Assembly (NCBI GenBank): GCA_013390945.1
Contig: JACAUC010000003.1
Location: forward strand, 5,274 to 69,273
From: Candidatus Chloroheliaceae bacterium
GTDB taxonomy: Bacteria > Chloroflexota > Chloroflexia > Chloroheliales > Chloroheliaceae
Length of the DNA stretch: 64,000 nt
Reading direction: 5' to 3'
Shown: positions 1 through 64,000 of the stretch, piece by piece
How positions within the stretch are numbered: position 1 is the stretch's first letter
How the letters are laid out: each line of letters opens with the position of its first letter
Notes under the pieces: model-generated
What the model was told of the DNA's origin: nothing
Seen by the model: the letters and a program-made list of their open reading frames with translations, nothing else
Databases searched by the model: none
Program-made: the position numbers and the translations under genes

Positions 1-49
1 AAGTACTATAGAAAATAGTTCTAATTGCCTACCGTTGCGGTTAGAACGA

Positions 50-2317
50 CTATTGCTGACCGATTTCCCGTTTGAAGGTACGTAGCATATTGCGTAGTTC
101 GAGATCATTGGGATATTTATCAATGCCCATTTCCAGCAGCAGTAGGGCAAATTTTTGTCGTCCGGTGGCACTATAGGCGTTGGCGAGGGCTTTATAGCCT
201 AATACGGGCATTTGATCAAATTCTTCTAGGCCACCAAAATCGAATAGAGGGTCATACTCGACCACTTTACGAAACTCGTCGGTACTAGCCTGCAAACGTC
301 CAGCATAAGCATAATCAATAGCCTGACGTGCCCTCGCTCCCAGACTGTCCGCGCCTCCGGTAGGTGTACCAAAAAAGTTACGGTCGTTACCTCGCTCGGT
401 TTTCTCGCTACGTGTAGGTGGTTGGGAGAGTGGTGGTCGTTGGGAGAGTGGCTGGGCAGGACGTAGCCGATCTATCGGCGAATTTAAGTCGGGTTTTTGT
501 TTAGGTTCGGCGGCAGTACGATTGGCATGGTTAGACATTCTCGAATTGGGAAGAGGATTTTCTCTTTCCCGCTCCGGTTGGGTGGGCACCCGATTGGTTA
601 GTGGTGCTATGTTAGGAGCAGGTGGTAAAGGTTGGGGTGATTTTACCTCCGGGCGCACCTCTGGTTGCTCGGAAATTGCTTGGTTATCTTCTAACGCAAA
701 GGGTTGTAATTCATCAAAAAAGCCATCTAGTGGGTTGTTATCCGCTACCTGCTCTGGTGGCGTAGGACGGGGCCGGGAGGGGTTTTGGGCCGTGCCGGAT
801 TTTGAGGTGGTGCTAGGTCGCGTGTTCTCAATGGTGCGAGGATTTGGATTTACCCGCTCGCGATAACCTGTCGGGCTAGATGACCTTGAAGTTGGCAGGT
901 TGCGCGATACTGGAGGAGTCGCCGCTTCATCCGGGTGGTTACCCGGTTTGAGAGCGACGAAGAGACGCTTGAGTCCATGTTGGGTGAATCTTACGGCGAT
1001 CATAACCATATCTTCGAGCCACAGTGCGGTATTACGTCCGGTTTCACCTCCTAAGTAGCCTGCTCTTCCCAGACCAAAAAGTATACTGACTAAGATTAGA
1101 AATATAAGGAGTACCACAAAGAAATTTGGCCCACTATTTTGTTTGGCACTGTTGGTAGCAGGCGGAGTAATGCTGTTCTCTCCGCTAATATTAGTAGCAG
1201 TTGGCGCAGGTGCAATCGTAGAGCTATAGGCAGTGCTGATCTGGGCAGCGATAGCTGATTTTGGCTCGTTAAGGTCGAGTCTGGTGCTTTGGAAATTGCC
1301 AAACACTTCGGCGTTAGCACCTTGGGCTGACATCAGTAAATTGCCTTTAGGATAGCCAATATATTGAGCGGTGCTATTAATCGGGCCACCACCAGAGGAC
1401 GGATTTTTGACTGCTTCGGGCAGCTCAAAGGTAAAGTTGAGCATCGTGGCAGCATCATTGGTAAAACCGGCTTGATCGGTGTTCATTACCACTGCAAGGG
1501 CGGTCTGACCGTTGCGAGTAGCACTGGCGACGAGGCATAAACCGGCTCCATCAGTAAAGCCAGGCTTGATACCGTTGGCTCCACTATAGCGTTTTAGGAA
1601 GGTGTTGATATTAACCAGCCCATGACCTGCTACAGTAGCTTGTTGCTGACTGACTATTTTGGCAAGGGTGGGATTATGCAGGGCGTACCAGCCTGTTATT
1701 GCCAGATCAAAGGGACTGGAATAGTGATCCGTCTGGTCAAGACCGTGTGGGTTGGCATAATGGGTATTGCGTAAGCCCAGCGCGGTAGCCTGACTATTCA
1801 TATGGGCGACAAAGCGGTCTACCGGATTACCCTCTCCCGGCAATTTTGATCCGGCGTAGCGGGCGATGGCTTCGGCAGCATCATTACCACTATTAAGCAA
1901 CATTCCATAGAGCAAATCGGAGAAGGTGACCACTTCCCCTGCTCGCAGACCCATACTAGCCTCTCCGATCAAATCCTCTTTGACAACGGTGTAGGTTTCG
2001 TTTAGGTCAGTGCCGAGAGTGTCGAGCGCGGTAAGGGCAGTCATAATTTTGGTAGTGCTTGCCATTGGAGCGCGACGATGGATATTTTTGGCATAGGTAA
2101 TAAGACCAGTGGAGGCATCTACCGCAATAGCCGCCTGTCCGGTGACGTTTGGAGTGGCTGATTGGGCCTGCACGGGTATGACCCAGCAGAATGGGATCAG
2201 CAGCATCATAACCAGTGCTAATAGTAGAGCCGTTAGACCCTGCCATCCAGAGCTTAGTTGAATGGGTGATTTTGCTCTTTTTCGCAGCTTGACCGCGCCT
2301 CTTGCTTTATCTTCCAA
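50..2317 (-). CDS. D-alanyl-D-alanine carboxypeptidase (S11 / PBP5-like) fused to a second TM helix, a ~330-aa Pro/Ser-rich tail and a C-terminal TPR-like module
   Basis: 755-aa ORF with an N-terminal signal anchor. Penicillin-binding motifs occur in order: SxxK (ASTTK), SxN (NSGND), K(T/P)G (KPGFTDG). A second TM follows (FFVVLLIFLILVSILFGLG), then a long P/S/R/N-rich low-complexity region. The last ~100 aa are helical-repeat-like (YKALANAYSATGRQKFALLLLEMGIDKYPNDLELRNML). Confidence 0.75.
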   Translation of the reverse strand: MEDKARGAVKLRKRAKSPIQLSSGWQGLTALLLALVMMLLIPFCWVIPVQAQSATPNVTGQAAIAVDASTGLITYAKNIHRRAPMASTTKIMTALTALDTLGTDLNETYTVVKEDLIGEASMGLRAGEVVTFSDLLYGMLLNSGNDAAEAIARYAGSKLPGEGNPVDRFVAHMNSQATALGLRNTHYANPHGLDQTDHYSSPFDLAITGWYALHNPTLAKIVSQQQATVAGHGLVNINTFLKRYSGANGIKPGFTDGAGLCLVASATRNGQTALAVVMNTDQAGFTNDAATMLNFTFELPEAVKNPSSGGGPINSTAQYIGYPKGNLLMSAQGANAEVFGNFQSTRLDLNEPKSAIAAQISTAYSSTIAPAPTATNISGENSITPPATNSAKQNSGPNFFVVLLIFLILVSILFGLGRAGYLGGETGRNTALWLEDMVMIAVRFTQHGLKRLFVALKPGNHPDEAATPPVSRNLPTSRSSSPTGYRERVNPNPRTIENTRPSTTSKSGTAQNPSRPRPTPPEQVADNNPLDGFFDELQPFALEDNQAISEQPEVRPEVKSPQPLPPAPNIAPLTNRVPTQPERERENPLPNSRMSNHANRTAAEPKQKPDLNSPIDRLRPAQPLSQRPPLSQPPTRSEKTERGNDRNFFGTPTGGADSLGARARQAIDYAYAGRLQASTDEFRKVVEYDPLFDFGGLEEFDQMPVLGYKALANAYSATGRQKFALLLLEMGIDKYPNDLELRNMLRTFKREIGQQ

Positions 2318-2527
2318 TATTGTAGCTTTCTATAGTTTTACCAAGATTGACCGCCTTATGGCATTTCATTCTATCACACGGCTATTTTTATGTAAAGAGG
2401 TTTAGATGCTAGTATTGTATAAATTTGGTCGAATTGACCGAACCGAAATTTAGCGTTAAAGTAAGCAGGAGCGTTTAAGGGTAGGGAGCGGCTTTTGAGT
2501 TAATTGAAGAGGCTGGAATAAAGGTTT

Positions 2528-9356: not shown

Positions 9357-10367
9357 TTATGAACTACCCCCCCAAGGAGTGGAAGTTGGTAGCGGCGTGG
9401 AAGTTGGCGGAATGGGTGTCGGCGTGTTGGTCGGTGGAACGGGTGTCGCGGTTTTGGTTGATGTCGCCGTGTTGGTCGGTGGTGCTGGTGTTGGCGTATT
9501 GGTCACAGTCGGCGTATTGGTGACGGTCGGTGTGCTGGTTGGCACTGGCGTATTAGTGACCGTCGGCGTTGGTGCTGCCGTCTGAGTAGCCTTCATATTA
9601 GCGGTTGCCGTTGCCTCGTAGATCGCCGTAATGGTAGAGTTGGCATTGGTGGTATTTTGCGCGATGGTAGCGTTAGCATTGGCAGTAGCTTGTACCACTG
9701 TACCAGTAGCATTAGCAGCAACCTGTGTTGCGGTAGCGATAGCATTGTTGGTAGCCTGCGCGATGGCAGTGTTGGTTTGTCGGGCTATCCTTGTTGCGGT
9801 AGTGTTAGCATTGTTGGTAGCCTGCGCGATGGCAGTGTTGGTCCAAGCGGCTATGGTTAGAGGTGCCGGTGTATTAGTGGGTGTGGCCGTATTAGTGGAT
9901 GTGGCCGTATTAGTGGCCGTACCAGTGGATGTAGCCGTACCAGTGGATGTAGCCGTATTAACTGGCGTTTTGGTACTGGTGGACGTATTAGTGGATGTGG
10001 CCGTATTTGGCGCAGTGGGTGCCGCCGTGCCAGTCGGTGGTATGGCGGTCTGGGTTGGAGTATTAGTGGGTATTGGTGCAGGGGTGGGTAATGATCCCGC
10101 TGTACTCCCCAAAGTAGCAGCAGGAGCAGGCGTAAACTGCGTAAACTCTACACCACCTTCGCCTACGCTGTCTTTTGCACCTTTAAACGCACTGTCCACG
10201 CTGTTAGTGGAAAGCACGATTGCTCCAACAACTGCCAACGAGATCAAGGCGAGTAACACGGCATACTCCACTAAACCTTGCCCACTCTCGCCTTTTCTTA
10301 AAGCTCGGATTTTAGGTTTGTCACGACGTTTCAAATTAGTACTCCTTCCGAATAAATCAGATTTCAT
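9357..10367 (-). CDS. flp: Flp-family type IVb pilin with a ~280-aa Thr/Pro/Ala/Asn-rich repetitive C-terminal extension
   Basis: The Flp signature is GQGLVEYAVLLALISLAVVGAIVL, i.e. the G/XXXXEY processing motif plus a hydrophobic helix. The rest is low-complexity (TNTPT, TSTGTA, NTAIAQATNNA repeats). The track ORF extends to 10397. I prefer the MKSDLF start at 10367. It sits immediately upstream of, and divergent from, the cpaB-cpaE-cpaF-tadBC genes. Confidence 0.65.
   Translation of the reverse strand: MKSDLFGRSTNLKRRDKPKIRALRKGESGQGLVEYAVLLALISLAVVGAIVLSTNSVDSAFKGAKDSVGEGGVEFTQFTPAPAATLGSTAGSLPTPAPIPTNTPTQTAIPPTGTAAPTAPNTATSTNTSTSTKTPVNTATSTGTATSTGTATNTATSTNTATPTNTPAPLTIAAWTNTAIAQATNNANTTATRIARQTNTAIAQATNNAIATATQVAANATGTVVQATANANATIAQNTTNANSTITAIYEATATANMKATQTAAPTPTVTNTPVPTSTPTVTNTPTVTNTPTPAPPTNTATSTKTATPVPPTNTPTPIPPTSTPLPTSTPWGGSS
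9741..9842. repeat. perfect 36-bp direct repeat (period 66 bp) inside the flp extension
   Basis: agcattgttggtagcctgcgcgatggcagtgttggt occurs at 9741-9776 and again at 9807-9842. Further degenerate 18-24 bp tandem units lie at 9883-9960. Confidence 0.9.
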
Positions 10368-10759
10368 GACAAGTACGATTAAGATTAGAATAAACAATCG
10401 GACATTTTAGGTTTAGTACTGGTTAGGAGTAAGAGTGCGACATTGGCTTGGAACAAAAGAGAGATTAAAAAAAAACAATACCTGCAATCCGATTAGAAAA
10501 GGCTTCTAACCCTCCCTACTAGCCACTCTACCCAACTATTACAATGTCCCATGTTCTATTTTATAATTATAACATTACGAAGAGCATTACGGAAGTTGTG
10601 AAAAACGTAACAAATAGTACCCCCTGCGAGCCTTTTTGAGGCTAAAGGCTCTGCCAGAAGCGACTTTAACAGTACTTTGGTGTAGGTTTCTTAAGGCGAG
10701 GTACTAGTACCTAATTAGGAAAAGAGTAATAGGGCGACCATTTTCCTATTGCAAAGGTG

Positions 10760-12070: not shown

Positions 12071-12436
12071 ACGGTCTCTAGTAGGATTTTGAGATAGAGC
12101 TAAGAGTGCCACGGGTCAAAATAGGTATTCTATTCTCATTTGGCAATCCGCGCCAAGCCTAGGGCATAGCGCGGATTGGCGTTGTACTAATAAAATATAC
12201 CTAAGAGGGTATATAATAAGTTTGTGTTCTAACCCGTTAGGCAACACAATAGTACTATAATTCTATCCGTAGTATCTATTGCAAGCCTCTTCCAAAAATG
12301 TTAGAATTTTGCTAAGGGTCGTGGGTACGGCTAGTTATTACTACGCCCAATCTTGTAACCTTAGATTAAAGATCAAACAGCGTGGTTAAACGTCAGTAGG
12401 AGCGGTAGCCGACATTGCAAATAAGGAAAGCTGAAC

Positions 12437-13744: not shown

Positions 13745-13807
13745 AATGGTCTCCATTTAATCCGCTCCGCGGGGCAGAACGAATAGTTTTACAAAGGTGG
13801 TGTTAAG

Positions 13808-15307: not shown

Positions 15308-15396
15308 AAAATTGACTAAATTGACTATGGAGGGTTAGCGTGGCGAGAATCAACGCTCTAAACGCTAACTAAGCTAGGGCCAGGAGCCAATTTCTT

Positions 15397-16380: not shown

Positions 16381-16435
16381 CCTCTTAGGAGTTAAATATC
16401 AATAAATTGTCTAGAATTTCTTTAGGAGGTCTTAT

Positions 16436-41224: not shown

Positions 41225-41244
41225 GATTTAAACTAGGGAAACTT

Positions 41245-51495: not shown

Positions 51496-53199
51496 ATGAA
51501 TCAACCTGAATCGGCAGGACCACCACCTGCTCCCAACCTTGAACAGACAACTCCGTCCTCCGCTTCACCCGATGAGCCTAAAACTTCAAAGGCAGCTAAG
51601 AATATGTCGTTGGGGCGCAAGACTGGTCGCGCACTCTTTTGGAATGTCTTCTTTCTACCCCTCAAAGCTGGTTTACAACTCTTCGTGACCCTCGTTATCG
51701 TCAAGACCTTCCCACTAGAAGCTTACGCAGTGTTGGCGGCAGTTACTGCTGTCCTTAGTACATTGGGACTCTATGTAGACTTAGGTATCGAACGGGCCTT
51801 GCCGCGTTTCGTAAGTGAGATTGAGCAGAAACAAGGCCGGGCGGCACTACGTCTCTTTATCACCCGTATTACCCTCATCAAACTGGCCGTGCTAACCGTC
51901 GTAGTCTTGATTATCACCGTAGCCGCCGAACCAATTATCAGTTGGATGGGTAGTTGGGGCGATCAGGGTCACATTTACTTAGCTCTAATTAGCATGTTAT
52001 TGGTATTGGGCGCACTTTATGACATTTGTACCCAAATCCTCTATAGCTTTTTCAAGCAAAAAGTCACTAACCTGCTTGACATTGTAGTAACTGTACTCAA
52101 TCCTCTGCTCACGCTGTTACTGGTTGGCCCTTTGGGGCTACGGGTCTATGGCGTAGTGCTGGCCCTACTTATCACCACCGTTATTAGTGTCGGAATTGCT
52201 GGCTGGCAAGCTTGGCTGGCTTCAAAAGACCTTGAAGTCAAATTAAAAACTCCCAAACCTAACCCAGCCCCTTCCGCGACTGATACCGGAGTGATCCCCC
52301 GTGAAAGCCTGCTCAAGCGCTTCATTCGGTATGCGGCCCTGATGTACTTTTTCAACATCTCAGCTTGGTTCTACGATGCCTCTTTCGCGATGTTGGTCTT
52401 CACCTTCTACCGGGAGATTGTCACAGTGGCCTTGATCCGCTTGATTTACAATTTCATCAAGACCCTATTAAAGAACTTGTTGTCCCCCTTTGTAGGAGTA
52501 CAAACACCTCTCTTTTCCTCCATCCATGCCGAGGGTCACACCCCTAAATTGCACACTGCTTATGCTTCAATCAGCAAACTTCAAATTTTTATTCTAGTGC
52601 CAAGTAGTATTGGTGCGATCATCTTAGCCCGTAACATCCTTGAACTTCTCTTTGCCCGTAAGAGTGCCGATGCGGTGCTACCTGTTACGCTGCTGGAACC
52701 GGCTACTTGGGCCACCATCCTCACTATCATCTTTACCTTTGCCGAAGCCCTTATCAGTCTGCCAATGGTGATACTGATGGTCTACGAACGTTATCGGGCG
52801 GTAATTTTGGCCCGTACCTTACCACTGTTAGCAGGGCCACTGCTGATACTAACTGCCGCCCTACATTGGAATGTGGTGGTTGCCGTAACGATAATGGGTT
52901 TGATGGCAGTTAGTTCACGAGTGATGGCCATGGTCTCATTACAACGGACGCTGGGCCTCTATTACCCGGTTAAATTCCTTCTCAAAGTCTCGAAAGCGGC
53001 CCTAGCCTTTGGTATCCCTTTGCAAATCCTCGTTCTCTTCTTGCCGATCAACTGGCCTATAACCCTAGGCATAGCAGGTACGGGTGTTATAATCTTCTAT
53101 GCGGTTTTTAAAGGGTTGGGCGGTTTTGACCTAGAGGACAAAAACCGCCTACAAACCCTTAAAATGCCTTTACGCAAATATATAATTAAGTGGTTTTAG
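51496..53199 (+). CDS. MOP-superfamily (Wzx/MurJ-like) polysaccharide/lipid flippase
   Basis: ~14 hydrophobic helices with a polysaccharide-biosynthesis-protein-like layout. I prefer the MNQPES ATG at 51496 over the track start at 51421. The 3' end overlaps the bchI 3' end by 4 nt (convergent). Confidence 0.55.
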   Translation: MNQPESAGPPPAPNLEQTTPSSASPDEPKTSKAAKNMSLGRKTGRALFWNVFFLPLKAGLQLFVTLVIVKTFPLEAYAVLAAVTAVLSTLGLYVDLGIERALPRFVSEIEQKQGRAALRLFITRITLIKLAVLTVVVLIITVAAEPIISWMGSWGDQGHIYLALISMLLVLGALYDICTQILYSFFKQKVTNLLDIVVTVLNPLLTLLLVGPLGLRVYGVVLALLITTVISVGIAGWQAWLASKDLEVKLKTPKPNPAPSATDTGVIPRESLLKRFIRYAALMYFFNISAWFYDASFAMLVFTFYREIVTVALIRLIYNFIKTLLKNLLSPFVGVQTPLFSSIHAEGHTPKLHTAYASISKLQIFILVPSSIGAIILARNILELLFARKSADAVLPVTLLEPATWATILTIIFTFAEALISLPMVILMVYERYRAVILARTLPLLAGPLLILTAALHWNVVVAVTIMGLMAVSSRVMAMVSLQRTLGLYYPVKFLLKVSKAALAFGIPLQILVLFLPINWPITLGIAGTGVIIFYAVFKGLGGFDLEDKNRLQTLKMPLRKYIIKWF

Positions 53200-54368
53200 G
53201 CTTTAACGCCTAACACTTTTTCTGCCGCTTGCTCAATCTTGATGCCACTATCGGTATTGTCGAGGGGGTCTTTTCGCAGGCGGTGGCGTAGCGAAAGACC
53301 TACTACATTCCGTACATCCTCCAGCGTGACAATCTTCTTGTGGCTAAGAGCCGCTTGAGCGGTAGCAGCGCGAGCAATGGTCAACTCGCCCCGGTGTCCG
53401 TCCACGCTCAAGGCTAGGCATAATTCGGCAATTTTTAGCAAGACTTCATGGGGCAACGCTACTTGGGGTAGAAGTTTCTGAGCATTTTTGATTTGGCGGC
53501 GCAATTTTTCCTGAGCAGGCTCCCACTCTGCCATAAAATCGGCTGGATTTAGCTCAAAACTCTGGCGACGTTTGACAATCTCCACTCGCTGTTCCAGATC
53601 AATAATGGTAATAATGCGAGAGTGTAGACCAAAGCGATCCAACAATTGCGGACGCAAATCGCCTTCCTCAGGATTGCCACTACCCACCAACACGAACCGG
53701 GCTGGGTGGCGCACACTAATACCTTCGCGTTCTACCGTATTTACCCCACCAGCCGCCACGTCCAGCAATACGTCCACAAGGTGATCTTCTAAGAGGTTTA
53801 CCTCATCAATATAGAGGAACCCGCGATTGGAACGGGCCAACAGTCCTGGCTCAAAAGCTTTGATACCTTGATTTAGGGCTTTTTCAATATCAATTGTGCC
53901 GCAAACCCGGTCTTCGGTAGCACCTAGCGGTAAGTCTACCACCGGAACAGGCGCATAATGTCCCGTGAGTTTTTGCCCTTTCGACAGCTTATCCCGGCAA
54001 TCGCGGCAGAGTGCGCCACGCCGCTCGGTATCGGGATCGCAGCCATAGAAGCAGTTTGCTACTACTTTAATGCGTGGCAACAAATCGGCGAGGGCGCGAA
54101 CAATGGTGCTTTTGCCAGTTCCGCGGTGGCCCATAATCATTACCCCCCCAATTTTGGGGTCAATCACATTGAGCAAAAGCGACCGCTTCATCTCTTCCTG
54201 TCCCACGATGGCAGCAAAGGGATAGACATAGTGGGCTTCTACCTCATCTTTGCCCTTTGCCGTAGTTTTTGCTTTCCCTTTGACAGTAGGCGTTTCTTCG
54301 CCATTACCATTTTCCAGCAGCTCGTCCGGTTCGTCTACAGGTATGGTATTTTCTATTAGCTCGGTCAT
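53196..54368 (-). CDS. bchI: magnesium chelatase ATPase subunit I
   Basis: YPFAAIVGQEEMKRSLLLNVIDPKIGGVMIMGHRGTGKST (Walker A), FLYIDEVNLLEDHLVDVLLDVAA (Walker B), SGNPEEGDLRPQLLDRFGL. It has a ~40-aa N-terminal extension. Confidence 0.9.
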   Translation of the reverse strand: MTELIENTIPVDEPDELLENGNGEETPTVKGKAKTTAKGKDEVEAHYVYPFAAIVGQEEMKRSLLLNVIDPKIGGVMIMGHRGTGKSTIVRALADLLPRIKVVANCFYGCDPDTERRGALCRDCRDKLSKGQKLTGHYAPVPVVDLPLGATEDRVCGTIDIEKALNQGIKAFEPGLLARSNRGFLYIDEVNLLEDHLVDVLLDVAAGGVNTVEREGISVRHPARFVLVGSGNPEEGDLRPQLLDRFGLHSRIITIIDLEQRVEIVKRRQSFELNPADFMAEWEPAQEKLRRQIKNAQKLLPQVALPHEVLLKIAELCLALSVDGHRGELTIARAATAQAALSHKKIVTLEDVRNVVGLSLRHRLRKDPLDNTDSGIKIEQAAEKVLGVKA

Positions 54369-54432: not shown

Positions 54433-55491
54433 TTAGCTTTTTAGCGCATTTTCAAGTCCAAACTCTAATGACTCTGATTTACCATTACTAGAATCATTGG
54501 TAATCATTGTGGTCAAGTTAATAGAAGCGCGGGTTAGGTGTAACTTGAGCAAAGTTGCCACCTGAGCAGGTAATTCAGCCAAGATCAGATGACCACAATG
54601 GGGCATAACAAAATAAGTACAATTAGGCAGTAAGGTGGCAAGGCGTTTACTGCTTTTCTGACTGATTACTTTGTCGTGCGAACCAGCCACTAGGAGTGTG
54701 GGCATTTTGAGTGAGACTACCCATTGAGGTAACTGATCCAATACCTCCCTTGACATAGTAGATTTAGCCATATAAAAGGCGGCATTGGGCGAAGTATCTC
54801 GCAGGCTCAAGAGTCCATACTCAATATCACGACGTGAGGCCGGATTTTTTAGCAGGGTGAGGCGGGCATAGTAGTAGACGGCCCGCCAAGATTTGAGTCG
54901 TCGCAACACTTTGCTAAAAACTGTAGCAAGAGCTTTGGCCCCAAACTGCTCAAAAGCGGCACTATACTTGAAAAGACCATAGTTGAAAAAGGCCACACTA
55001 GCCACCGATTCAGGATAGCGAGCGGCGTAAGCCGTAGCAATTAGCGAACCGACCGAGAAAGAGAGGAGATGGAATTTTTCCAACTGGAGCAATTCGGCTA
55101 GTTTACGGAGGTCGTCAACTAGCGTGGCGATTTCGTAATCCGCTACGATAGGGTCATCGGTGAAGCCATGTCCGCGTAAATCATAATTGATCGTGCGAAA
55201 GCCTGCGATATTGAGAATGTCTACGATGCTGTGCCACCAAAAAGAGGAACAATCCCAGCCATGCAATAGGATCACCGACTCACCCTTGGGTGGGCCTTCA
55301 TCTAGGTAGAAATGGTTGACTCCGTTTATTTTTACGAAGTGGGCCTGCTCCAGTTTGGAAAGGTCTTCCTGCAGGTTGGCTCGACGCTGTGTATTGGTGT
55401 GGGGTAAGGCAATTTCAGCCTGGGCGAGTGTGGCATATTCCAACGCTTTCGCTGTAGGCACCCCTTCACAACCTACCTTCTGCTTCATCAT
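54433..55491 (-). CDS. alpha/beta-fold hydrolase, BchO-like by position
   Basis: HGWDCSSFWW oxyanion region, nucleophile elbow SFSVGS, C-terminal HCGH histidine. It lies directly upstream of bchI. Purple-bacterial bchI-bchD-bchO clusters encode a similar hydrolase, so the BchO label is a context inference. Confidence 0.55.
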   Translation of the reverse strand: MMKQKVGCEGVPTAKALEYATLAQAEIALPHTNTQRRANLQEDLSKLEQAHFVKINGVNHFYLDEGPPKGESVILLHGWDCSSFWWHSIVDILNIAGFRTINYDLRGHGFTDDPIVADYEIATLVDDLRKLAELLQLEKFHLLSFSVGSLIATAYAARYPESVASVAFFNYGLFKYSAAFEQFGAKALATVFSKVLRRLKSWRAVYYYARLTLLKNPASRRDIEYGLLSLRDTSPNAAFYMAKSTMSREVLDQLPQWVVSLKMPTLLVAGSHDKVISQKSSKRLATLLPNCTYFVMPHCGHLILAELPAQVATLLKLHLTRASINLTTMITNDSSNGKSESLEFGLENALKS

Positions 55492-55993: not shown

Positions 55994-56671
55994 GTGGCTT
56001 TTCAAAGATTTCGGTTCAACTCAAGACGAAACAAAATTGCCACCAGTGTGCTGGGGCTACCCGAAACCCAGGCAGTTTACTTTAGTGTCTGGCTCGCTGG
56101 CATATTAATTGGTGTCGTATTAATGATTATCCTTGTAGGTTTAATCGGCAATGGTGTGGATACACCACGTACGCAACAAACCGCTAGGGAAAATCAGGGG
56201 GACATCGTAGCACCAATCCAACTAGTCTACCGAGATGCTCAGGGAAATCTAGCTACTGCACAGCAAGCTGGTTTCTCTAATGGCGTGGTAGCCCAAGTAG
56301 ATAGTTGGGAACGAGCAGCCGCGCAGGGTGATAAAGTAGCTCAAGCCGAGCTACAAGCAGCACGTGGTCGCGGACAAGCTAACTTTAATCGGATCTGTAT
56401 TGGTTGTCATTACGGCGCACCCCAAGCATCTTCCAGTGGCCCTTATCTGGGGAACCTTTACCAGACTAAGACCGTCTTCAATGGTAAGCCGCTCAATGAT
56501 GCTAATGTAGTTACTTTTATCTTATTAGGCAGTCAGTCTCACAACTTGGTGGCGGATGGTCAGCATGTGCTGGTCAATGGGAGCGGTGGTTTTATGCCGA
56601 TGCCCTCCGGAATTGCTACACCGCAGCAAGCTGTAGACATAATGCTTTATTTGAAACAACAAACGAGTTAA
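55994..56671 (+). CDS. membrane-anchored monoheme c-type cytochrome (candidate reaction-centre electron donor)
   Basis: 225 aa with a GTG start after a gagaggagg RBS. One TM (VWLAGILIGVVLMIILVGLIG). The CXXCH heme motif CIGCH is at 56396-56410. A distal Met candidate lies in GGFMPMPSG. It ends 30 nt upstream of the pscA-like gene. Confidence 0.75.
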   Translation: MAFQRFRFNSRRNKIATSVLGLPETQAVYFSVWLAGILIGVVLMIILVGLIGNGVDTPRTQQTARENQGDIVAPIQLVYRDAQGNLATAQQAGFSNGVVAQVDSWERAAAQGDKVAQAELQAARGRGQANFNRICIGCHYGAPQASSSGPYLGNLYQTKTVFNGKPLNDANVVTFILLGSQSHNLVADGQHVLVNGSGGFMPMPSGIATPQQAVDIMLYLKQQTS

Positions 56672-56701
56672 TAAACCTTAGGCTAGTAAGGAGCACAAGC
56701 G

Positions 56702-58489
56702 ATGAGCATTACCCTGCAACCGGGCGCCCGTCCGCTCATCAATCGGCCAGCACTAAACAAAGCGGCTGAGCTGCATGTGCCAGGATACCGCTGGTATCAG
56801 CTTTTTGCCTTTCCGCGTACCGAAGATCAGATTTTTGGCGGCCACTTGATTGTGGCCGGTGCAATCGGTTCGATGGTAGCGTTCAACATTGGCAGTGGGC
56901 TTACCTTCCCTGGTAACTATTTTTTCCTTACCATCGAGCCACAGCTTTACAATCTAGGTATTGATACCAAAGAAAAGCTCTTGACCTATACCCTGATCCA
57001 TATCATCTCTAGTCTGGGCTTAATCTTCTTTGGTTGGTGGCACTATCGCAATAAAGTGTTACAGGCTGCCGCCTCAAGCTACGCGAAGGCGTGGGGTGGG
57101 CATTTGGTCTATATCGCTTGGTGGTGCTTCGCCTGGGTGCTGTGGAGTACGTTGGTAATGCAGCGCGGCCCTAAGTTTGGTACAGATGGATGGATATGGG
57201 CCGCAGCAGGAGCGCAAGATTTAACCTTTAATGGTGACGCCCTACTGCTTTGTCTGTCGGTAATATTGCTGGTAACCGGGTTGGTAACTTGGCGCAAGCC
57301 GCCGACCTTTAATCGGCATTTGGAAGATCCAAAAGCGCAACTTCACGTCAATCTGGTGGTCTTTGGCTGGACAGGCATGTTGTTCAGTGCCTTTGCCTGG
57401 TTCACCTTCCCGCGAGGCTCAAACGCCGCCGCAGGCCAGTGGAGCGATGTGGCTCTTAATCTCTACGTGTGGAACCACATTAACTGCAGCTTCCTCTACA
57501 TCATCGGCGGTGTCTTTCACGGCGCTCAGTACCTCTGGGACGTGCGCGAGGATGACTCCAAGAACCCTTGGGTAGTAAGTCGCTGGGTACGCTGGTTCGA
57601 TAGTCAAGACCGTCAGGCCAGTATCACGAGTACAATCTTCCTCTTGGCCTTCTTTACCGGCTTTAGTGCTTGGTCTGTAATGGGTATCAACTCAATGGTG
57701 GATTTTAAGCTCTTTCCCCAAGAGTGGTACATTGACGGTCTGCGGCCTTACGTAATGGAATGGTTGACCCCCGGCCTGCTGCACGTCTGGCCTGGATATA
57801 AAACGAGTGTCAGTGATTGGGTCTTTATACATGCTCTTGTAGCTGGTTTCTTCTTTGTAGGGATACCAGTCACTCGGTCAGTATTTTTCACCAGACGTAG
57901 TCCCTTGTTTGATGCAAAAGGGATCACTAAACGTAGTTTCGATTATCCTTGTCTAGGGCCGGCCTATGGCGGTACCTGCGGTTACAGTATTCAAGATCAA
58001 ATCTGGTTAGCAATGCTATGGGGAATTAAACCGCTCTCGGTTATCGTTTGGTACATGATGGGTGTCTACTTTGGTAGTTTGCAGTTCGCAATTAACCCGA
58101 AAGACCCATCAGGTGATACTAGCTTCCCTGGAAGACCCGGAGCTTTGTTCTTCATCTTCCAAGCTACCAGTAAAATCTGGAATGATGGTCACTTGACGAT
58201 GATACTCTATCTTGGACACCTTGTTTGGCTATTAAGCTTTATGTTCTGGTTTGAGTATCGGGGTAGCCGTCTCGAAGGAGCGTATATCCTCAGTCAGGCA
58301 CTTAAACGTTGGTTCGGTATTAATATGGTGCCTGAACGCTTTGTTATGACGCTGGTAGGTAGCCGTATGTTAGGTACCTTCCTCTACTATGGTGGAGTCT
58401 TCATGTGTGTCTTTACCTATCTCTCGGTAGGTTTCGCTTGGAGGCCAAACATCCTAGCGCCAGTAGTCGCACCATTAGGCGGTCCATAG
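56702..58489 (+). CDS. pscA: type I photosynthetic reaction-centre core protein (PscA/PshA/PsaA-PsaB family), divergent and compact
   Basis: 595 aa and polytopic. The FX [4Fe-4S] loop FDYPCLGPAYGGTC has Cys417 at 57950-57952 and Cys426 at 57977-57979. Compare the family consensus FPC.GP.RGGTC. The penultimate helix ILYLGHLVWLLSFMFWFEYRGSRLEG (His506 at 58217-58219) aligns with PsaA [26 protein letters not shown], which carries the special-pair ligand. RBS is taaggagca. Confidence 0.85.
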   Translation: MSITLQPGARPLINRPALNKAAELHVPGYRWYQLFAFPRTEDQIFGGHLIVAGAIGSMVAFNIGSGLTFPGNYFFLTIEPQLYNLGIDTKEKLLTYTLIHIISSLGLIFFGWWHYRNKVLQAAASSYAKAWGGHLVYIAWWCFAWVLWSTLVMQRGPKFGTDGWIWAAAGAQDLTFNGDALLLCLSVILLVTGLVTWRKPPTFNRHLEDPKAQLHVNLVVFGWTGMLFSAFAWFTFPRGSNAAAGQWSDVALNLYVWNHINCSFLYIIGGVFHGAQYLWDVREDDSKNPWVVSRWVRWFDSQDRQASITSTIFLLAFFTGFSAWSVMGINSMVDFKLFPQEWYIDGLRPYVMEWLTPGLLHVWPGYKTSVSDWVFIHALVAGFFFVGIPVTRSVFFTRRSPLFDAKGITKRSFDYPCLGPAYGGTCGYSIQDQIWLAMLWGIKPLSVIVWYMMGVYFGSLQFAINPKDPSGDTSFPGRPGALFFIFQATSKIWNDGHLTMILYLGHLVWLLSFMFWFEYRGSRLEGAYILSQALKRWFGINMVPERFVMTLVGSRMLGTFLYYGGVFMCVFTYLSVGFAWRPNILAPVVAPLGGP

Positions 58490-58697
58490 CCTTATCTGGT
58501 TTAGGCTTATCGAATGAAGTGGGCAACTCACGGGGTTGCCCACCAATGTCAAAGGTTGTGGTAAGCTAAACTATAAGATCCGTAGTTTCTGGCTCAACGT
58601 TAAAAGCAACAAAGATTTTCGTTTCTATTTCTTAACCAAAGTAAAGAGTTATTTCTTTAAGAAATAAACGATCCATTAGCTAAGGAGGTTCCCACAT

Positions 58698-59819
58698 ATG
58701 CCGCAGTTCCTAGAAGGAAGGGCAGAACAGGGGAGAGGTCAGGCCGATTGGCGCTGCCGATATGATGATGATTGGTGGTTAAATACCCAAGTTCGCGCAC
58801 TTCTTGGTTGCCCTACCGCTGTCCCCAAATTGCCACTCGAAACGGAAGTTGAATTCCGCGCTCGCCCTAAAGGTGACGATATTTCAGAGTGTACCGTCAA
58901 GGTCGAATCATTGGTGGAAGGGGTCAAAAAAACCCTTGAAATTAGTGCTTTAATTACAGACCTAGATGAACATACTCGCGAAAGTAAGGGTTTTGGTCGT
59001 ATTATTGTAGGTGACTTTATTCACCCCTTTGAGTGGCGCGGTACGGTCAAGCGCGAGACTTACGTACCTGATAGCAGTCTTAATCTGACTCGCTCACAAA
59101 CTTACATCGGTGGTCGGCTCTTACACGACGTGACCGCTCGTATCGCGTTGGATACCCCGATTGCCCGTGAAGCTTGGGAGCAGGTTCGCACTGTAACTGC
59201 TCGCAATAGCGATGTTTTGACCAAAACGGTCTTCTTTGGCCCACTCTGGCGCACGGCTGACCTAACCGGGCAGCTTTACGAGGATATTCAGGTGAAGACC
59301 CTCAGTGCCAGTGAAGGGAAAACCTTAAGTCGCGTCAGCTTTATCACCAGCGGTACAGGCCAAGTAGACAGTATTACTTACTGGACACGTCTCTTCCCCA
59401 TTTCGTTGCTCAAAGGACGTGAGGCTTTTGTCAAAGGTAAGTATGTAACCGATGCCAGTAGTATTAGGGTTTCGGTAGATGCCGAACTACCCGGTTTAGT
59501 GGAACGCAAAGATGGACTTCTAAAGGTAATTGACCACCCGCAGATACCCATCCTGCACCATGGCCTCGTTGGTCAGCCCATTCCGCTAGATCTGGATTTC
59601 AAGCTCAACCTAACGACACCCAATGGTTGGCGCATTAAAGAAGCCGATCCAAGTTATCGCAAGAAGATTGGTAAGAATGATTACCTATTCCAAGGCGGTG
59701 CCTATCTCAGTTTCGTCAATACTATCGCGCGTGGCAACTTAGCCCCGTTCGATGTCTGGTTTGATCGCGATGAGGCCGGTGCCTCGCTTAGCCCCAATGC
59801 AGCTATCGCAGTGAAGTAA
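58698..59819 (+). CDS. fmoA: Fenna-Matthews-Olson bacteriochlorophyll a protein
   Basis: 373 aa. Blocks align to Chlorobaculum FmoA: VGDFIHPFEWRG (cf VGDFSHTFSFEG), GGRLLHDVTARIALD (cf QGRQFHDILMKVPLD), VDSITYWTRLFP (cf VDSISRWAELFP), IDHPQIPILHHGLVG (cf LNHPLIPLVHHGMVG), QGGAYLSFV (cf SGGAYARWV). All five His ligands are conserved. RBS is taaggagg. Confidence 0.9.
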   Translation: MPQFLEGRAEQGRGQADWRCRYDDDWWLNTQVRALLGCPTAVPKLPLETEVEFRARPKGDDISECTVKVESLVEGVKKTLEISALITDLDEHTRESKGFGRIIVGDFIHPFEWRGTVKRETYVPDSSLNLTRSQTYIGGRLLHDVTARIALDTPIAREAWEQVRTVTARNSDVLTKTVFFGPLWRTADLTGQLYEDIQVKTLSASEGKTLSRVSFITSGTGQVDSITYWTRLFPISLLKGREAFVKGKYVTDASSIRVSVDAELPGLVERKDGLLKVIDHPQIPILHHGLVGQPIPLDLDFKLNLTTPNGWRIKEADPSYRKKIGKNDYLFQGGAYLSFVNTIARGNLAPFDVWFDRDEAGASLSPNAAIAVK

Positions 59820-60100
59820 CTTATCGGAGACCCGCTTTCAGCCATCAGCTTTTGATAAGTTGATGGCTGGCGGCGGATGGCTGATAGTTTTTTAACAACA
59901 AGCTACATCCAAGCTTATTTAAATGGCTGACTCGGCAAGATCGTTCTTTTGGTCGGCTGATGACCTTCTATCCGTAGGGGCCAACAGTGTAAAGTCGGCA
60001 AGCAAGAGCGGTTGAGGCGCAAGCGGTTGAGTCGGGCAGGCAGGTAAGCGAGCAAGTCAATATAGCTAGTGACAGTGAGTAAGTGAATCCACAAAACAAT

Positions 60101-60134
60101 GTCGGCTCTTTGAGTGAGGGAGCCGGCTTTTTTT
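60101..60134 (+). terminator. orphan rho-independent terminator ~280 nt downstream of fmoA
   Basis: GTCGGCTC-N11-GAGCCGGC stem followed by T7 (60128-60134). No ORF of 60 aa or more ends here. Confidence 0.5.
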
Positions 60135-60205
60135 ATGGGCAGTCTACTTAAATCTAAAACAATTTTGGTTTAGCCTTGGGCTTAGTACCATCTCAGTTAA
60201 TCGAA

Positions 60206-60249
60206 AAGAGGCTCCACCAGAAAGAAATAACTTTCTGGTGGAGCCTCTT
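60206..60249 (-). terminator. perfect 19-bp hairpin terminating the 32-aa minus-strand ORF
   Basis: AAGAGGCTCCACCAGAAAG-aaataa-CTTTCTGGTGGAGCCTCTT. On the minus strand it is followed by UUCGAUU, giving CUCUUUUCG. Confidence 0.55.
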
Positions 60250-60281
60250 GCGCTGTATCACCTCAAAAACCTGATAGACCG

Positions 60282-60380
60282 CTAAGAAGCCGCTACCGTA
60301 TTTAGAGCTAGAAACACTAAGCCAATTACACCAAAACCTAAGGATATTACGCGAGTTAAGTGTTGCTGATTTGTCTTCAT
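60282..60380 (-). CDS. candidate 32-aa single-TM peptide (below the ORF-track length cut-off)
   Basis: My translation is MKTNQQHLTRVISLGFGVIGLVFLALNTVAAS. A gaggt RBS lies 5 nt upstream of the ATG. A strong hairpin lies 30 nt downstream of the stop. Confidence 0.4.
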   Translation of the reverse strand: MKTNQQHLTRVISLGFGVIGLVFLALNTVAAS

Positions 60381-60497
60381 CTTTACCTCAAAATTTCTTG
60401 AAACAGATTGGGTTCCAAAGTTCCATAAAATCAGGTTACATAAATTTTTGGTCTATACAACTAAAACTAGTTAAAATCTATGCGTGTCAAACTACAC

Positions 60498-60535
60498 AAA
60501 AAAAACCAGTCTAAGTAGAATTCTACTTAGACTGG
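60498..60535 (-). terminator. rho-independent terminator after the 93-aa ORF
   Basis: CCAGTCTAAGTAG-aatt-CTACTTAGACTGG perfect 13-bp stem. A plus-strand A8 (60498-60505) gives U8 on the minus-strand transcript. Confidence 0.7.
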
Positions 60536-60556
60536 GAATTTATTTTGGTGGGATAA

Positions 60557-60838
60557 CTAAACGCGCTTTCGTCCTGTTTTGCCACTAAATAGTGCGGCTA
60601 GACCACTGGAGTTGTTGGCTACAATTTGGGTGGCTTTATTTTCGGCACTATTTGACGAAGGCAGTGTTTTGCCTTGCTTGAGGCGACCAATTAGTTTTGG
60701 TTTAGGAGTCAACAGGTCGCTGACAAAGGGATGCGCTCCCCATCTAGGTGCATCGGCGTGGTGCAGCACATAGCCTAAATTGAGGTCTTCATCGTGTATA
60801 CCGGGGGTAGGTTTTTTAGTTTTTGGTGATTCCATCAT
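60557..60838 (-). CDS. hypothetical small basic protein
   Basis: 93-aa ORF bracketed by a clean terminator. No motif recognised (HHADAPRWGAHPFVSD). Confidence 0.45.
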   Translation of the reverse strand: MMESPKTKKPTPGIHDEDLNLGYVLHHADAPRWGAHPFVSDLLTPKPKLIGRLKQGKTLPSSNSAENKATQIVANNSSGLAALFSGKTGRKRV

Positions 60839-60981
60839 TCATCTCTTCTTGTTATGTAAAATTTTGTTAAAATTAAACCAACCTAACAATACCACGAAAT
60901 GCCGCTAAATTCAAGTTTGGAATCAATCAATGGACGGAGCCATATCCCACAAGATTCGCGCTCTTGTAGGAAGCGGCTCAG

Positions 60982-62670
60982 TCAGCCGAATTTTAGAAAG
61001 GGAGCCGGGTCTACCACTTGGTTTTGATAGCGGATCTCATAATGGACATGTGGCCCAGTAGAATAGCCCGTATTGCCAGAAAGGGCAATCACTTCTCCGG
61101 CCTTCACCGTTTGACCTGCTACTACCAATAACCGCGAGTTGTGACCATAGATGGTGATGAAGCCTCCCGGATGGTTAATAAAAACTACTTGACCGTAGCC
61201 CCCACGCCCATCTCCCGCATATTCCACTACTCCACTGGCGGTAGCTTTTACTAGAGTTCCTTGTACTACCCCAATATCAATGCCCGTGTGAAATTCCATA
61301 CCAGACCCTACCTCAATGCTACTACTACTTACCACAGGCTCCTTCAGATTAATACTAGGGGTCGGGGTAAGCTCTGGTGTAGCGGTTGGGGTAACGTCGG
61401 GTAGAACGGTAAGCGTGGTGGTGATGGTGGTCTCTGGCGCAACTGTAGGTGTTGTGGTTGCGGTAAAGGTAGGCGTGGTGGTGGTTAGTGCCGGAAAAGG
61501 AGTCAGGGTAAGGGTTGGGGTGATAGTGGTTAGCATCGGAATACGGTTAATGATGGCAGGAGTGATATTGGTCTGTATTGGGATAGTGGCAGGGCGATTA
61601 CCCGTCAGAGAAGTTGGGGTTGGTGTCGTTGTGTTGGTTGGGCTGCTTGTAACTTGGGCTATTCCAGCGCGGGCGGTAGTCGGGTTATTTCCACCTTTGC
61701 CTTCAGCGACCGTTGTGCCACTATCTTCAGGCTTAGAATTTGTCGTGGTATCGGTAATAATAAGAATAGGACGTGGGCCAAAAGGTGACGTAATCGGGCC
61801 ATGAACCGGCCAGCCTTGCGGTGCGTAGCTAAGAGCGGCTAGTTTTTCGGCGGAAGTTCCCAAAATGGCTGCTACAATGCTAGGTGTTACGCTATTATTG
61901 CTACTAAGATTGCTGTGAGCCACGCCATTAGCAGCCGTCTCTACCCTGCTATAATTCAAGAATGATTCCCGTACCTCATTACCTAGCGTGGAAAGGTCTT
62001 GCGAAAAACTTAGTAGTTGTTCGTTAAAAGTCTTTAGTATTACCTTCTCTTCATTTACGCCACTTAGTGCCAAAGAAGTGCTGGTTGGAGTTGGTGTAGT
62101 AAAATCAGGAGTGAGGGTGGTGATTGGTAACGGAGTGTCGGTTGAGGTGGTAGAGCTAGGAACGGGGCTAGTGACTGGCAACAGGGTGCTGGTTGGAATG
62201 GGTGTTGTAAAATCAGGAGCAGGTAGGTTAAGATTTTTCTCAAGAGTAGCGGCATACTCCTTGAGTTTGTCTACCAAAATGTGCAATTCCAACAAATCTT
62301 GTCGTACAGATTCTAGATCATTTTGATAATGCCCTAGCACCGAATTATCCGGGTTTAACGGGTCTGAACTGGTCTGACCTTTAGCCGCAGCCGTTTGGGC
62401 TAATTTGGCGGACGTTTCCTTTTCTGTGTCCAATAATTTTTGAATACGATCCACTTCTTCCTTTTGCTTGGCGGCAACGCTGATTAGATCACTTCGTTTT
62501 CCAGCCGCAATAGTGGCTTGACGATCACGTTCTTGGCTCTCTTGGTTCCGCTGGGCTTTAAGTACATTTACCTCTTGGCTTAAGCTTTCTCCATCCCAGT
62601 ATAGTGACAGACTAAGCGCAATTGCTGCAAGTAGCAACCCGATTAGCCCAAGTATAATCCATTTTTTCAT
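60982..62670 (-). CDS. M23-family (LytM-type) metallopeptidase with an N-terminal TM, a coiled coil and Thr/Pro-rich linkers
   Basis: The C-terminal LytM domain is HTGIDIGVVQGTLVKATASGVV ... IYGHNSRLLVVAGQTVKAGEVIALSGNTGYSTGPHVHYEI (HxxxD and HxH). The N-terminal region is heptad-rich. Confidence 0.85.
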   Translation of the reverse strand: MKKWIILGLIGLLLAAIALSLSLYWDGESLSQEVNVLKAQRNQESQERDRQATIAAGKRSDLISVAAKQKEEVDRIQKLLDTEKETSAKLAQTAAAKGQTSSDPLNPDNSVLGHYQNDLESVRQDLLELHILVDKLKEYAATLEKNLNLPAPDFTTPIPTSTLLPVTSPVPSSTTSTDTPLPITTLTPDFTTPTPTSTSLALSGVNEEKVILKTFNEQLLSFSQDLSTLGNEVRESFLNYSRVETAANGVAHSNLSSNNSVTPSIVAAILGTSAEKLAALSYAPQGWPVHGPITSPFGPRPILIITDTTTNSKPEDSGTTVAEGKGGNNPTTARAGIAQVTSSPTNTTTPTPTSLTGNRPATIPIQTNITPAIINRIPMLTTITPTLTLTPFPALTTTTPTFTATTTPTVAPETTITTTLTVLPDVTPTATPELTPTPSINLKEPVVSSSSIEVGSGMEFHTGIDIGVVQGTLVKATASGVVEYAGDGRGGYGQVVFINHPGGFITIYGHNSRLLVVAGQTVKAGEVIALSGNTGYSTGPHVHYEIRYQNQVVDPAPFLKFG

Positions 62671-62885: not shown

Positions 62886-62914
62886 TTGACCGAGATAAGT
62901 GAATCCGGTATAAT
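62886..62914 (+). promoter_or_regulatory. sigma-70 type promoter (TTGACC-N17-TATAAT) upstream of rpoB
   Basis: TTGACC at 62886-62891, a 17-nt spacer and TATAAT at 62909-62914. It lies ~195 nt upstream of the rpoB ATG. Confidence 0.55.
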
Positions 62915-63110
62915 ACTAGCCTACCAAAATAATGAATACTGCCTTGAAGAAGGATGCACAGCATAACCCCCTGTAAAACCTAGGGTGGGTACTTGAAACC
63001 AGTTTCTAGATCTTAATTATAAAGATGAACCAAGAAAAATCAGTTTCAAAAGACCCATTTTAAGAGGAGGTAAATGCGTGTGCTTATCACTGTGTGAGGA
63101 GTAATTTTAC

Positions 63111-64000
63111 ATGTCAATTGCTGCCGTGAATCTGGAAACTCTCCCCTCTTATGCTTATCGTGTTTCCGAACAAGAAGACCTGCTCTTGCAGCGTCCTACC
63201 CGGCGTTGGTTTAGTCGAATCCCGACCGTATTAGAGATGCCCAAATTGATTCAAACGCAGGTGGACTCGTTTGAATGGTTTAAGAAGGAGGGCTTGCGAG
63301 AGCTTTTTGACGAGATTTCGCCGATTAGCGATTTTACGGGAAAGAGCATGGAGTTGCATTTCCTAGATTATAAATTTGATAAGCCGCGCTATAGTGATAG
63401 CGAGTGCCGGGATAGGGATGCGACGTTTGCTGCGCCGTTGCGGGTGAATGTGCGTTTAATAATAAAAGAGACGGGAGAGGTAAAGGATAGCGAGATTTTC
63501 ATGGGAGATTTCCCGATTATGAGCGAGAATGGAACGTTCGTAATAAATGGGGCGGAACGAGTGGTGGTGTCGCAGTTAGTGCGTAGTCCGGGTATTTATT
63601 TTATCAAGGATGAAGACCCGGTGAGTGGTCATCCCCTATTTGGGGCGAAACTGATTCCGAATCGGGGGGCGTGGCTGGAGTTTGAGACTAGTAATAAGAA
63701 TATAATCAGTGTGAAGGTAGACCGGAAGCGGAAGATACCAGTGACGGTTTTACTAAGGGCGGTCTTAGCGGTTCTAACGATGGAGGAGCATCCGGGGACG
63801 AAGCCTGGGGAGGTGGGAAGCGATGAGGATATACGGAAGCTCTTTGAGGAGGCGGATGTAAGCTCGCTCAATCCGAATACGAATGTGGGAACTGGCCCTA
63901 ATTCTACCCGTTGGTCAAATAGTCTGACGATTCAGCAGACGATAGATAAAGACCCTACGAAGAATGGGGAAGAAGCGTTGGTGGAGCTTTATAAGCGGCT
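63111..64000 (+). CDS. rpoB: DNA-directed RNA polymerase beta subunit, 5' part (runs off the window)
   Basis: Not in the ORF track because it has no stop in the window. My translation from the ATG at 63111 is [18 protein letters not shown] ... [31 protein letters not shown] ... [39 protein letters not shown]. These are canonical RpoB N-terminal blocks. Confidence 0.95.

Follow-up and report, generated by a model that had tools for sequence, protein, structure and literature searches.

A type I reaction centre locus resident in a 'Candidatus Chloroheliales' chromosome, and an in-frame TGA codon, probably read as selenocysteine, at an FX ligand of related pscA genes

The stretch of contig JACAUC010000003.1 analyzed here (hereafter the window, meaning the whole 64-kb sequence; GC 47.3%, ~46 plausible genes) carries at 55,994–59,819, on the plus strand, three consecutive genes encoding a cytochrome c, a PscA-like core protein of a type I photosynthetic reaction centre (RCI) and a Fenna-Matthews-Olson (FMO) bacteriochlorophyll a protein. 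The pscA-like gene (56702–58489, plus strand), the only pscA copy in the window, encodes a protein of 595 amino acids which matched PF00223 with 32.7 bits (cut-off 23.3). Using phmmer against the PDB, the best-matching solved structures were exclusively RCI cores, namely Chlorobaculum PscA (6M32, E=6.5e-82), Chloracidobacterium PscA (7VZR, 1.7e-52, and 7VZG) and Heliobacterium PshA (5V8K, 1.7e-30), followed by PsaA/PsaB. The FX [4Fe-4S] motif is present as C417-LGPAYGGT-C426 (codons 57950–57979, plus strand), in agreement with the CxGPxxGGTC pattern typical of the segment linking transmembrane helices VIII and IX of RCI cores. Kyte-Doolittle analysis delivered 10 hydrophobic segments at a strict and 12 at a loose threshold, and 11 transmembrane helices have been predicted for the orthologous PscA (Tsuji et al., PMC10972752). 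The window PscA is 78% identical to that of Ca. Chlorohelix sp. ELA319 and 86–91% identical to those of other Chloroflexia metagenome-assembled genomes (MAGs), while outside this lineage the best full-length matches were heliobacterial PshA proteins, at 27–30% identity.

Compared to known systems, the locus is akin to the green sulfur reaction centre (Chlorobaculum tepidum PscA with FMO; 6M32, 7Z6Q) with regard to its homodimeric-type RCI core and its link to an FMO antenna, and the FX loop is nearly identical to that of C. tepidum PscA (sfdyPCLGPaYGGTCGySIQDQiWlAMLWGIKpLS). In contrast to C. tepidum, the window PscA has 595 rather than 731 amino acids, aligns well only over its C-terminal half and belongs to a different phylum. 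Its length is similar to that of heliobacterial PshA (∼600 amino acids; 5V8K); unlike the lineage of the window, however, Heliobacteria belong to the Firmicutes and have neither FMO nor chlorosomes.

The downstream fmoA gene (58698–59819, plus strand) encodes a full-length FMO protein, as indicated by a 167-bit match to PF02327 (cut-off 25) covering profile positions 13–354 of 355. It is identical to ELA319 FmoA, as given in the supplement of Tsuji et al., at 300/373 positions (80.4%, 637 bits), and FmoA of this lineage is only 21–26% identical to known FMO proteins (Tsuji et al., PMC10972752). Upstream of pscA, the cytC gene (55994–56671, plus strand) encodes a membrane-anchored monohaem cytochrome c with one transmembrane helix (residues 34–52), a single CIGCH motif at residue 135 and a weak match to PF00034. 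The cytC stop and pscA are separated by 31 nt, and pscA and fmoA by 209 nt. A terminator-like hairpin followed by T7, found by consensus scan only, is located ∼280 nt past fmoA (60101–60127, plus strand). The shared strand, the 31- and 209-nt gaps and this hairpin suggest that cytC-pscA-fmoA forms a single transcription unit, with the hairpin as its likely end.

The pscA-adjacent cytochrome c belongs to a tiny family (12 representatives at E<=1e-3, 3 of them below 1e-30, among 1.84 billion), and synteny of its gene with pscA extends to 8 of 10 loci from related species. Tsuji et al. found no clear orthologue of a reaction centre donor, and the pscA-adjacent cytochrome c is unmentioned in their Supplementary Note 2 (PMC10972752). 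Judging from its neighbourhood and restricted distribution, this lineage-restricted cytochrome is a candidate electron donor of the reaction centre in this genus. This proposal, which may be new, would provide a concrete candidate for the donor that the published authors failed to identify. According to the scheme considered here, Chloroheliales phototrophy would depend on a homodimeric RCI with a PscA-like core holding the FX [4Fe-4S] cluster and fed by chlorosomes through FMO: excitation would pass from the chlorosome to FMO and to the PscA homodimer, and electrons would exit via FX, with an FA/FB protein or a ferredoxin as acceptor. Known phototrophic Chloroflexales employ a type II centre instead. 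Physiological evidence of activity comes solely from the related strain L227-S17 (Tsuji et al., PMC10972752).

The intergenic region between fmoA and the following M23 peptidase gene (59820–60980) is itself rich in structure. Besides the hairpin with its T-run at 60101–60127, it contains further strong stem-loops, namely a perfect 19-nt inverted repeat (60206–60249) and a 13-bp palindromic hairpin (60506–60535), as well as a 93-codon open reading frame (ORF) devoid of any family match.

To place the host of these genes, we relied on the best protein matches of RpoB and CpaF. The 5' part of rpoB (63111–64000, plus strand; 296 codons up to the end of the window, where the gene is truncated; PF04563 and PF04561) encodes an N-terminus for which every named match among the best 120 is from Chloroflexota, at 52–77% identity (among others Roseiflexaceae, Chloroflexales, Thermomicrobiales, Ktedonobacteraceae, Dehalococcoidia, Limnocylindria and Dormibacteraceae); Chlorobiota, Acidobacteriota and Heliobacteria are absent from the named matches among these 120. 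Similarly, the best named matches of CpaF are all from Chloroflexota (Chloroflexi/Chloroflexia bacteria, Thermomicrobiales and Chloroflexus sp.). A previous reading of the window from its sequence alone (the sequence-only reading) had claimed that the host matches no classical RCI phylum and had proposed the placement of such proteins as a check; the claim is borne out, as neither RpoB nor CpaF was placed with Chlorobiota, Acidobacteriota or Heliobacteria. That reading had also pointed to the position of rpoB behind a divergent peptidase gene instead of rplJ-rplL. We likewise find rpoB preceded by a divergently oriented M23 peptidase gene (60982–62670, minus strand; PF01551; two Thr/Pro-rich linkers at residues 165–200 and 376–438), with no rplJ-rplL. 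Since rpoB is detached from rplJ-rplL in 3/3 other Chloroflexota contigs sampled, including a Roseiflexaceae and a Ktedonobacteraceae MAG, this arrangement fits the phylum. In the independent assembly L011, the full rpoB (1197 amino acids) is followed by rpoC.

We next consider how long the RCI genes have resided in this chromosome. Relative to the other sliding 5-kb windows of the 64-kb sequence, the segment at 55–60 kb is unremarkable in GC (0.482, z=+0.4) and in tetranucleotide distance (z=-0.2), in agreement with the earlier claim that the pscA/fmoA region has no visible break in composition. GC at third codon positions and codon-usage distance of cytC, pscA and fmoA lie within 1.3 standard deviations of the window genes (codon-distance z from -0.7 to +0.7). 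The claimed absence of a flanking tRNA, integrase or insertion sequence element holds as well: neither a tRNA gene nor any Rfam match was detected in the whole 64-kb window, the Pfam scan of the ∼46 ORFs revealed no integrase or transposase domain, and no insertion sequence element was found. Bracketing direct or inverted repeats were also lacking at 48–64 kb; the repeats detected there were short and due to chance, or reflected the paralogy of bchI and bchD.

A profile scan of species-representative genomes recovered relatives of PscA in 10 MAGs, all designated Chloroflexia bacterium or Ca. Chlorohelix sp. The cytC-pscA-fmoA order is syntenic in 8 of these 10 related species (PscA 86–91% identical), which argues for long residence of the unit, and the upstream flank (bchD, membrane protein gene, bchI and hydrolase gene) is common to 5 of the 10. 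Between the related cytC-pscA-fmoA genes, synonymous divergence (dS) is ∼1.6–2.2, thus saturated, at a ratio of nonsynonymous to synonymous divergence (dN/dS) of ∼0.03. With uniform composition and codon usage, no marks of mobility and a neighbourhood kept in relatives, the view of the sequence-only reading that the RCI genes were not recently acquired can be upheld.

Taken together, these results make it very likely that the window is native chromosome of a member of 'Ca. Chloroheliales' (Chloroflexia) with homodimeric RCI phototrophy, whose genes are long-resident. The Chloroflexota-like host context is real and expected, and reflects neither mis-assembly nor recent transfer; vertical inheritance since the ancestor of the order would be in keeping with it.

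Several points nonetheless weigh against native, long-resident RCI genes. The compositional baseline was the 64-kb window itself. The downstream M23-rpoB flank is common to 0/10 related species, and in a Chlorohelix-like clade (L007, L008 and L019) pscA stands alone, flanked neither by the cytochrome c gene nor by fmoA, indicating that the neighbourhood has been rearranged. Neither composition nor synteny could, moreover, reveal an ancient transfer received by an ancestor of all Chloroheliales, and Tsuji et al. left open the choice between 'genetic displacement' and 'differential loss' (PMC10972752). On the host side, the Thr/Pro-rich linkers of several window proteins (see below) are a soft taxonomic hint and rank among the weaker arguments, and the assignment to a strain (see below) is based on identity values, the order of genes and the spacing of their accessions.

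An ancient lateral acquisition, in which the Chloroheliales ancestor received RCI and FMO genes by genetic displacement and fully ameliorated them since, is the alternative that survives best. It would account for a pscA context that depends on the genus (together with cytC and fmoA here, alone in the Chlorohelix-like clade), the top HMMER score of PscA is to Chlorobaculum PscA (279 bits), and the published authors deemed such an event possible (Tsuji et al., PMC10972752). Set against this are the lack of any compositional trace, the mere 27–30% identity to any RCI outside Chloroheliales, and bch and chlorosome phylogenies which follow the species tree (Tsuji et al., PMC10972752). We regard it as unlikely, yet as a serious contender; it is compatible with the claim that no recent acquisition took place. 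Far less probable is that a photosynthesis island entered a Chloroflexota chromosome by recent horizontal transfer. The loose grouping of bchXYZ, the ferredoxin gene, bchD, bchI and cytC-pscA-fmoA within 38 kb might suggest such an island, but unrelated housekeeping and envelope genes are interspersed, GC, tetranucleotide and codon usage equal those of the flanks, and the window lacks the tRNA, integrase, insertion sequence element or direct repeats of an island. Furthermore, the cluster is kept in at least 8 species with PscA identities of 86–91% and saturated synonymous divergence, and no close donor is at hand, given the 27–30% identity to RCI proteins outside Chloroheliales. The least probable explanation, an assembly or binning chimera in which RCI genes from a different phototroph were joined to housekeeping genes of Chloroflexota, could appeal to the likely source being a fragmented MAG of 546 contigs, but is ruled out by the contiguity of bchI, pscA-fmoA, M23 and rpoB (with rpoC) in assemblies obtained independently, with different pipelines and from different samples (L011, Logan; L012, ENA; L013, NCBI), besides the uniform composition and the presence of the same gene family in a relative that has been cultured and whose genome is closed.

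A native locus is also what published work leads one to expect. A Chloroflexota lineage that uses RCI, 'Ca. Chloroheliales', has been reported (Tsuji et al., bioRxiv 2020; Nature 2024, PMC10972752), and the premise of the sequence-only reading that known phototrophic Chloroflexota use type II centres is therefore outdated. The same study assigned PscA to a fifth RCI clade with no recent lateral transfer and mainly vertical inheritance within Chloroflexia. RCI in Chloroflexota is thus already known, and its detection here is a rediscovery. The occurrence of RCI in a phylum known for type II centres bears on the divergence and spread of both photosystem types, which earned the original description its prominent place (Nature 2024); the window itself, being most probably part of one of the published genomes, adds nothing to that question.

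With respect to the strain, the window is most probably 'Ca. Chloroheliaceae bin L227-5C' or its lake twin ELA729, which shares 99.4% average nucleotide identity with it. Relative to bchZ, the genes bchD, pscA and fmoA occupy positions +20, +25 and +26 in the window, equal to the spacing of the L227-5C accessions in Supplementary Data 2 (bchZ NWJ94278, bchD NWJ94298, pscA NWJ94303 and fmoA NWJ94304; PMC10972752). The identities between window and ELA319 (PscA 78%; FmoA 80.4%, 637 bits) agree with those published for L227-S17 and L227-5C (PscA 77.6%; FmoA 80.429%, 637 bits; Tsuji et al., PMC10972752), and the published GC of the L227-5C MAG is 47.7% (PMC10972752, also for the identity of ELA729 to L227-5C). 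Entries with the exact window PscA sequence exist in NCBI, JGI, ENA and Logan, including a lake MAG consistent with ELA729. As in L227-5C/ELA729, pscA and fmoA are adjacent in the window and GC is ∼47.5%; in gene order, accession spacing, identity values and GC, no difference was detected. The type strain 'Ca. Chlorohelix allophototropha' L227-S17 likewise combines a Chloroflexota host with a PscA-like RCI, FmoA, and chlorosome and bacteriochlorophyll genes, has no pufLM and carries an FX motif with two Cys. It is, however, of a different genus (PscA ∼78%, FmoA ∼80%), and its pscA (OZ401_000236) and fmoA (OZ401_003705) have distant locus tags (PMC10972752); since the two genes are far apart in L227-S17, the window is not that type strain.

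In comparing pscA genes across this lineage, we found a difference at the second FX cysteine. The codon is TGC in the window (57977–57979), and at least 10 related Chloroflexia lineages carry an in-frame TGA in its place, at position 11273 in loci L001, L003, L004, L009, L010 and L021, 8250 in L002, 9381 in L005, 4957 in L006 and 2661 in L019. The TGA was also recorded for loci L020 (paired with L019) and L022 (paired with L021). These 10 TGA lineages, spread over both major clades, compare with 7 sequences of the Cys type on hand: the window, L007 and L008 (TGC), and the full-length proteins P0001, P0002, P0132 and P0134. Consistent with the TGA, the database homologues P0003, P0004 and P0005 stop at residue 424 or 432, right before the second FX Cys. 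In support of read-through, each TGA gene contains exactly one in-frame stop, downstream of which the frame is intact for ∼170 codons, and dN/dS of TGA-type pscA is 0.034 downstream of the TGA compared to 0.032 upstream, so that purifying selection is as strong behind the TGA as before it.

Two other explanations for the TGA were considered and rejected. Gene callers predict a PscA split into two polypeptides (424 and ∼157 amino acids), but the 12 codons that separate the TGA from the following ATG are conserved as protein: they still encode GYSIQDQxWLA in spite of synonymous substitutions (Ser TCC/AGC among them), which argues that pscA is not split into two proteins. A genome-wide reassignment of TGA was dismissed because TGA ends pscA itself (aligned with the TAG of the window) as well as other long ORFs at the same loci.

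A hairpin of the form GACCA-NNNN-UGGUU is found 16 nt past the UGA, with a stem that follows in large part from the conservation of the peptide QDQxW. Loops in the TGA lineages are GGUC, GAUU, GUUC or AGUU, with G in first or second position; the Cys lineages show a weaker stem (GAUCA) and the loop AAUC. The apex CAGGUCUG (loop GGUC with its closing pairs) presumably resembles the selenocysteine insertion sequence (SECIS) of E. coli fdhF, a likeness which we treat as a lead and not as a test. The RNAalifold consensus of the 10 TGA contexts was weak (-6.8 kcal/mol) and lacked compensatory pairs. Rfam scans of four relatives' loci, together with a permissive scan around the TGA, returned no SECIS family, the sole hit being a chance miRNA match, and ARAGORN detected no tRNA for selenocysteine (Sec) in 14 loci covering up to 22 kb per genome. 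In the portion covered of the supplements of Tsuji et al. (PMC10972752), selA, selB and selD are not annotated. Literature searches on selenocysteine in type I reaction centres, in Chloroflexota or in Chloroheliales retrieved nothing relevant.

Bacterial selenoproteins with metal ligands in which Sec and Cys are interchangeable include FdhF-type formate dehydrogenase and [NiFeSe] hydrogenase. As in these enzymes, the UGA of the relatives aligns with a metal-ligating Cys of close homologues and a hairpin lies just downstream; unlike in these enzymes, the hairpin has neither covariation support nor an Rfam match, and the window encodes Cys. To our knowledge, no reaction centre protein is a selenoprotein. 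Based on the codon comparisons, we lean, with reservation, towards the reading that the in-frame UGA at the second FX ligand of the relatives is decoded as selenocysteine, which would make the reaction centre a facultative selenoprotein. In a homodimer of the TGA type, the FX [4Fe-4S] cluster would then be held by two Cys and two Sec ligands. This reading concerns the relatives and not the window's own sequence. The nearest relatives of the window, L009 and L021 (PscA 91% identical), carry TGA, and the TGC of the window looks like a reversion within a TGA-bearing clade, which on this reading would be one from Sec to Cys.

Both enriched strains of the published study are of the Cys type (Tsuji et al., PMC10972752), which could be the reason why the TGA went unnoticed. 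We found no mention of it in the literature, and the in-frame TGA in pscA of the relatives may be new. If the selenocysteine reading is true, it would reveal a first photosynthetic reaction centre that depends on selenium, and a Sec ligand on FX would represent a form of cofactor tuning new to photosynthesis; moreover, gene callers would split the reaction centre gene in most wild relatives, and surveys restricted to full-length genes would miss or truncate them.

Further phototrophy genes are loosely grouped with the cytC-pscA-fmoA unit over 38 kb (21710–59819). The genes bchZ-bchY-bchX for chlorophyllide a reductase (21710–25837, minus strand), ∼30 kb away from the unit, were assigned by best NCBIfam matches (BchZ 498, BchY 390 and BchX 313 bits), each slightly under the equivalog cut-off. 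The Mg-chelatase subunit genes bchI (53196–54368, minus strand; TIGR02030, 548 bits) and bchD (49269–51362, minus strand; TIGR02031, 724 bits) both score above cut-off. Between bchI and cytC, an alpha/beta hydrolase gene (54433–55491, minus strand; PF00561), syntenic in 5 related loci, encodes a weakly BchO-like protein (TIGR03056 bchO, 85.7 bits, under the cut-off of 172.55). An FdxA-type ferredoxin (48584–48886, minus strand; Fer4 domains, NF045480 FdxA) is 74% identical to ELA319 FdxA, the counterpart of OZ401_001166, which in the published strain is highly expressed and was likened to PshB by the authors (Tsuji et al., PMC10972752). For the type strain L227-S17, no photosynthesis gene clusters were reported and pscA and fmoA are unlinked (Tsuji et al., PMC10972752). 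In the window, the segment at 48.6–55.5 kb holds, in addition to fdxA, bchD, bchI and the hydrolase gene, a gene for a polysaccharide-synthesis membrane protein.

The remainder of the window encodes envelope, pilus and glycan functions. At 0–9 kb, envelope and housekeeping genes for an S11 D-Ala-D-Ala carboxypeptidase, NmrA, PGA_cap, Hpf and GT4 proteins are followed by a tad/Flp pilus locus (9.4–17.4 kb). Here, cpaB, a REC-cpaE fusion, cpaF, tadB and tadC (10868–17371, plus strand; RcpC, Response_reg with AAA_31/ParA, T2SSE and two T2SSF domains) lie beside a minus-strand gene of 346 codons for an Flp-type pilin (9357–10397), recognized by the prepilin motif GQGLVEYAVLL in its translation. 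The REC-CpaE fusion noted by the sequence-only reading is present at 12437–13744 (plus strand), with an N-terminal Response_reg domain in addition to AAA_31/ParA/CbiA. The Tad/Flp set is complete for Flp pilin, CpaB, CpaE-type ATPase, CpaF, TadB and TadC, and no prepilin peptidase (TadV/CpaA) domain was found among the ORFs scanned. Classical Flp pilins are ∼50–80 amino acids long, far shorter than the window pilin, which carries a low-complexity C-terminal extension of ∼280 amino acids rich in Thr, Pro, Asn and Ala (Thr plus Pro 0.35 overall). The Thr/Pro-rich linkers reported earlier for this pilin and five further secreted proteins were recovered in all six: the best 25-residue window reaches a Thr plus Pro fraction of 0.72 in the pilin and in the M23 peptidase, 0.60 and 0.48 in the N-terminal linkers of PQQ lipoproteins 2 and 1, 0.56 in CpaB and 0.52 in a polysaccharide deacetylase (46730–48271, minus strand; PF01522; Pro/Thr/Lys-rich C-terminal tail at residues 470–513), compared to an average of 0.12 for all window proteins.

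The gap between bchX and the sugar transferase gene (25838–27009; 1.2 kb, GC ∼0.39) contains no ORF of at least 100 amino acids and no Rfam match. It is followed at 27–42 kb by genes for the sugar transferase, MerR, a 1173-amino acid A2M-like protein and RbsK, and by a low-GC glycan-synthesis cluster (33000–42000) encoding an epimerase, TylF-type and other methyltransferases and GT2 domains. This 33–42 kb cluster (GC 0.41–0.43; extreme z values of -2.7 for GC and +2.7 for tetranucleotide L1) is alone within the window in having a foreign-looking composition, and it is unrelated to the RCI genes; a second compositional outlier at 28–35 kb has a GC of 0.52. A 787-amino acid protein encoded inside the glycan cluster has no Pfam match. 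At 43–48 kb, two tandem paralogous PQQ/beta-propeller lipoprotein genes (42964–46062, minus strand; PF13360; lipobox LLAAC in the translations) are accompanied by genes for ArsR and the polysaccharide deacetylase. The two lipoproteins have near-identical signal peptides and linkers with repeating units of the 'TQPANTSTATPIPP' type. The pair is a recent tandem duplication, which inflates the tetranucleotide deviation at 41–48 kb.

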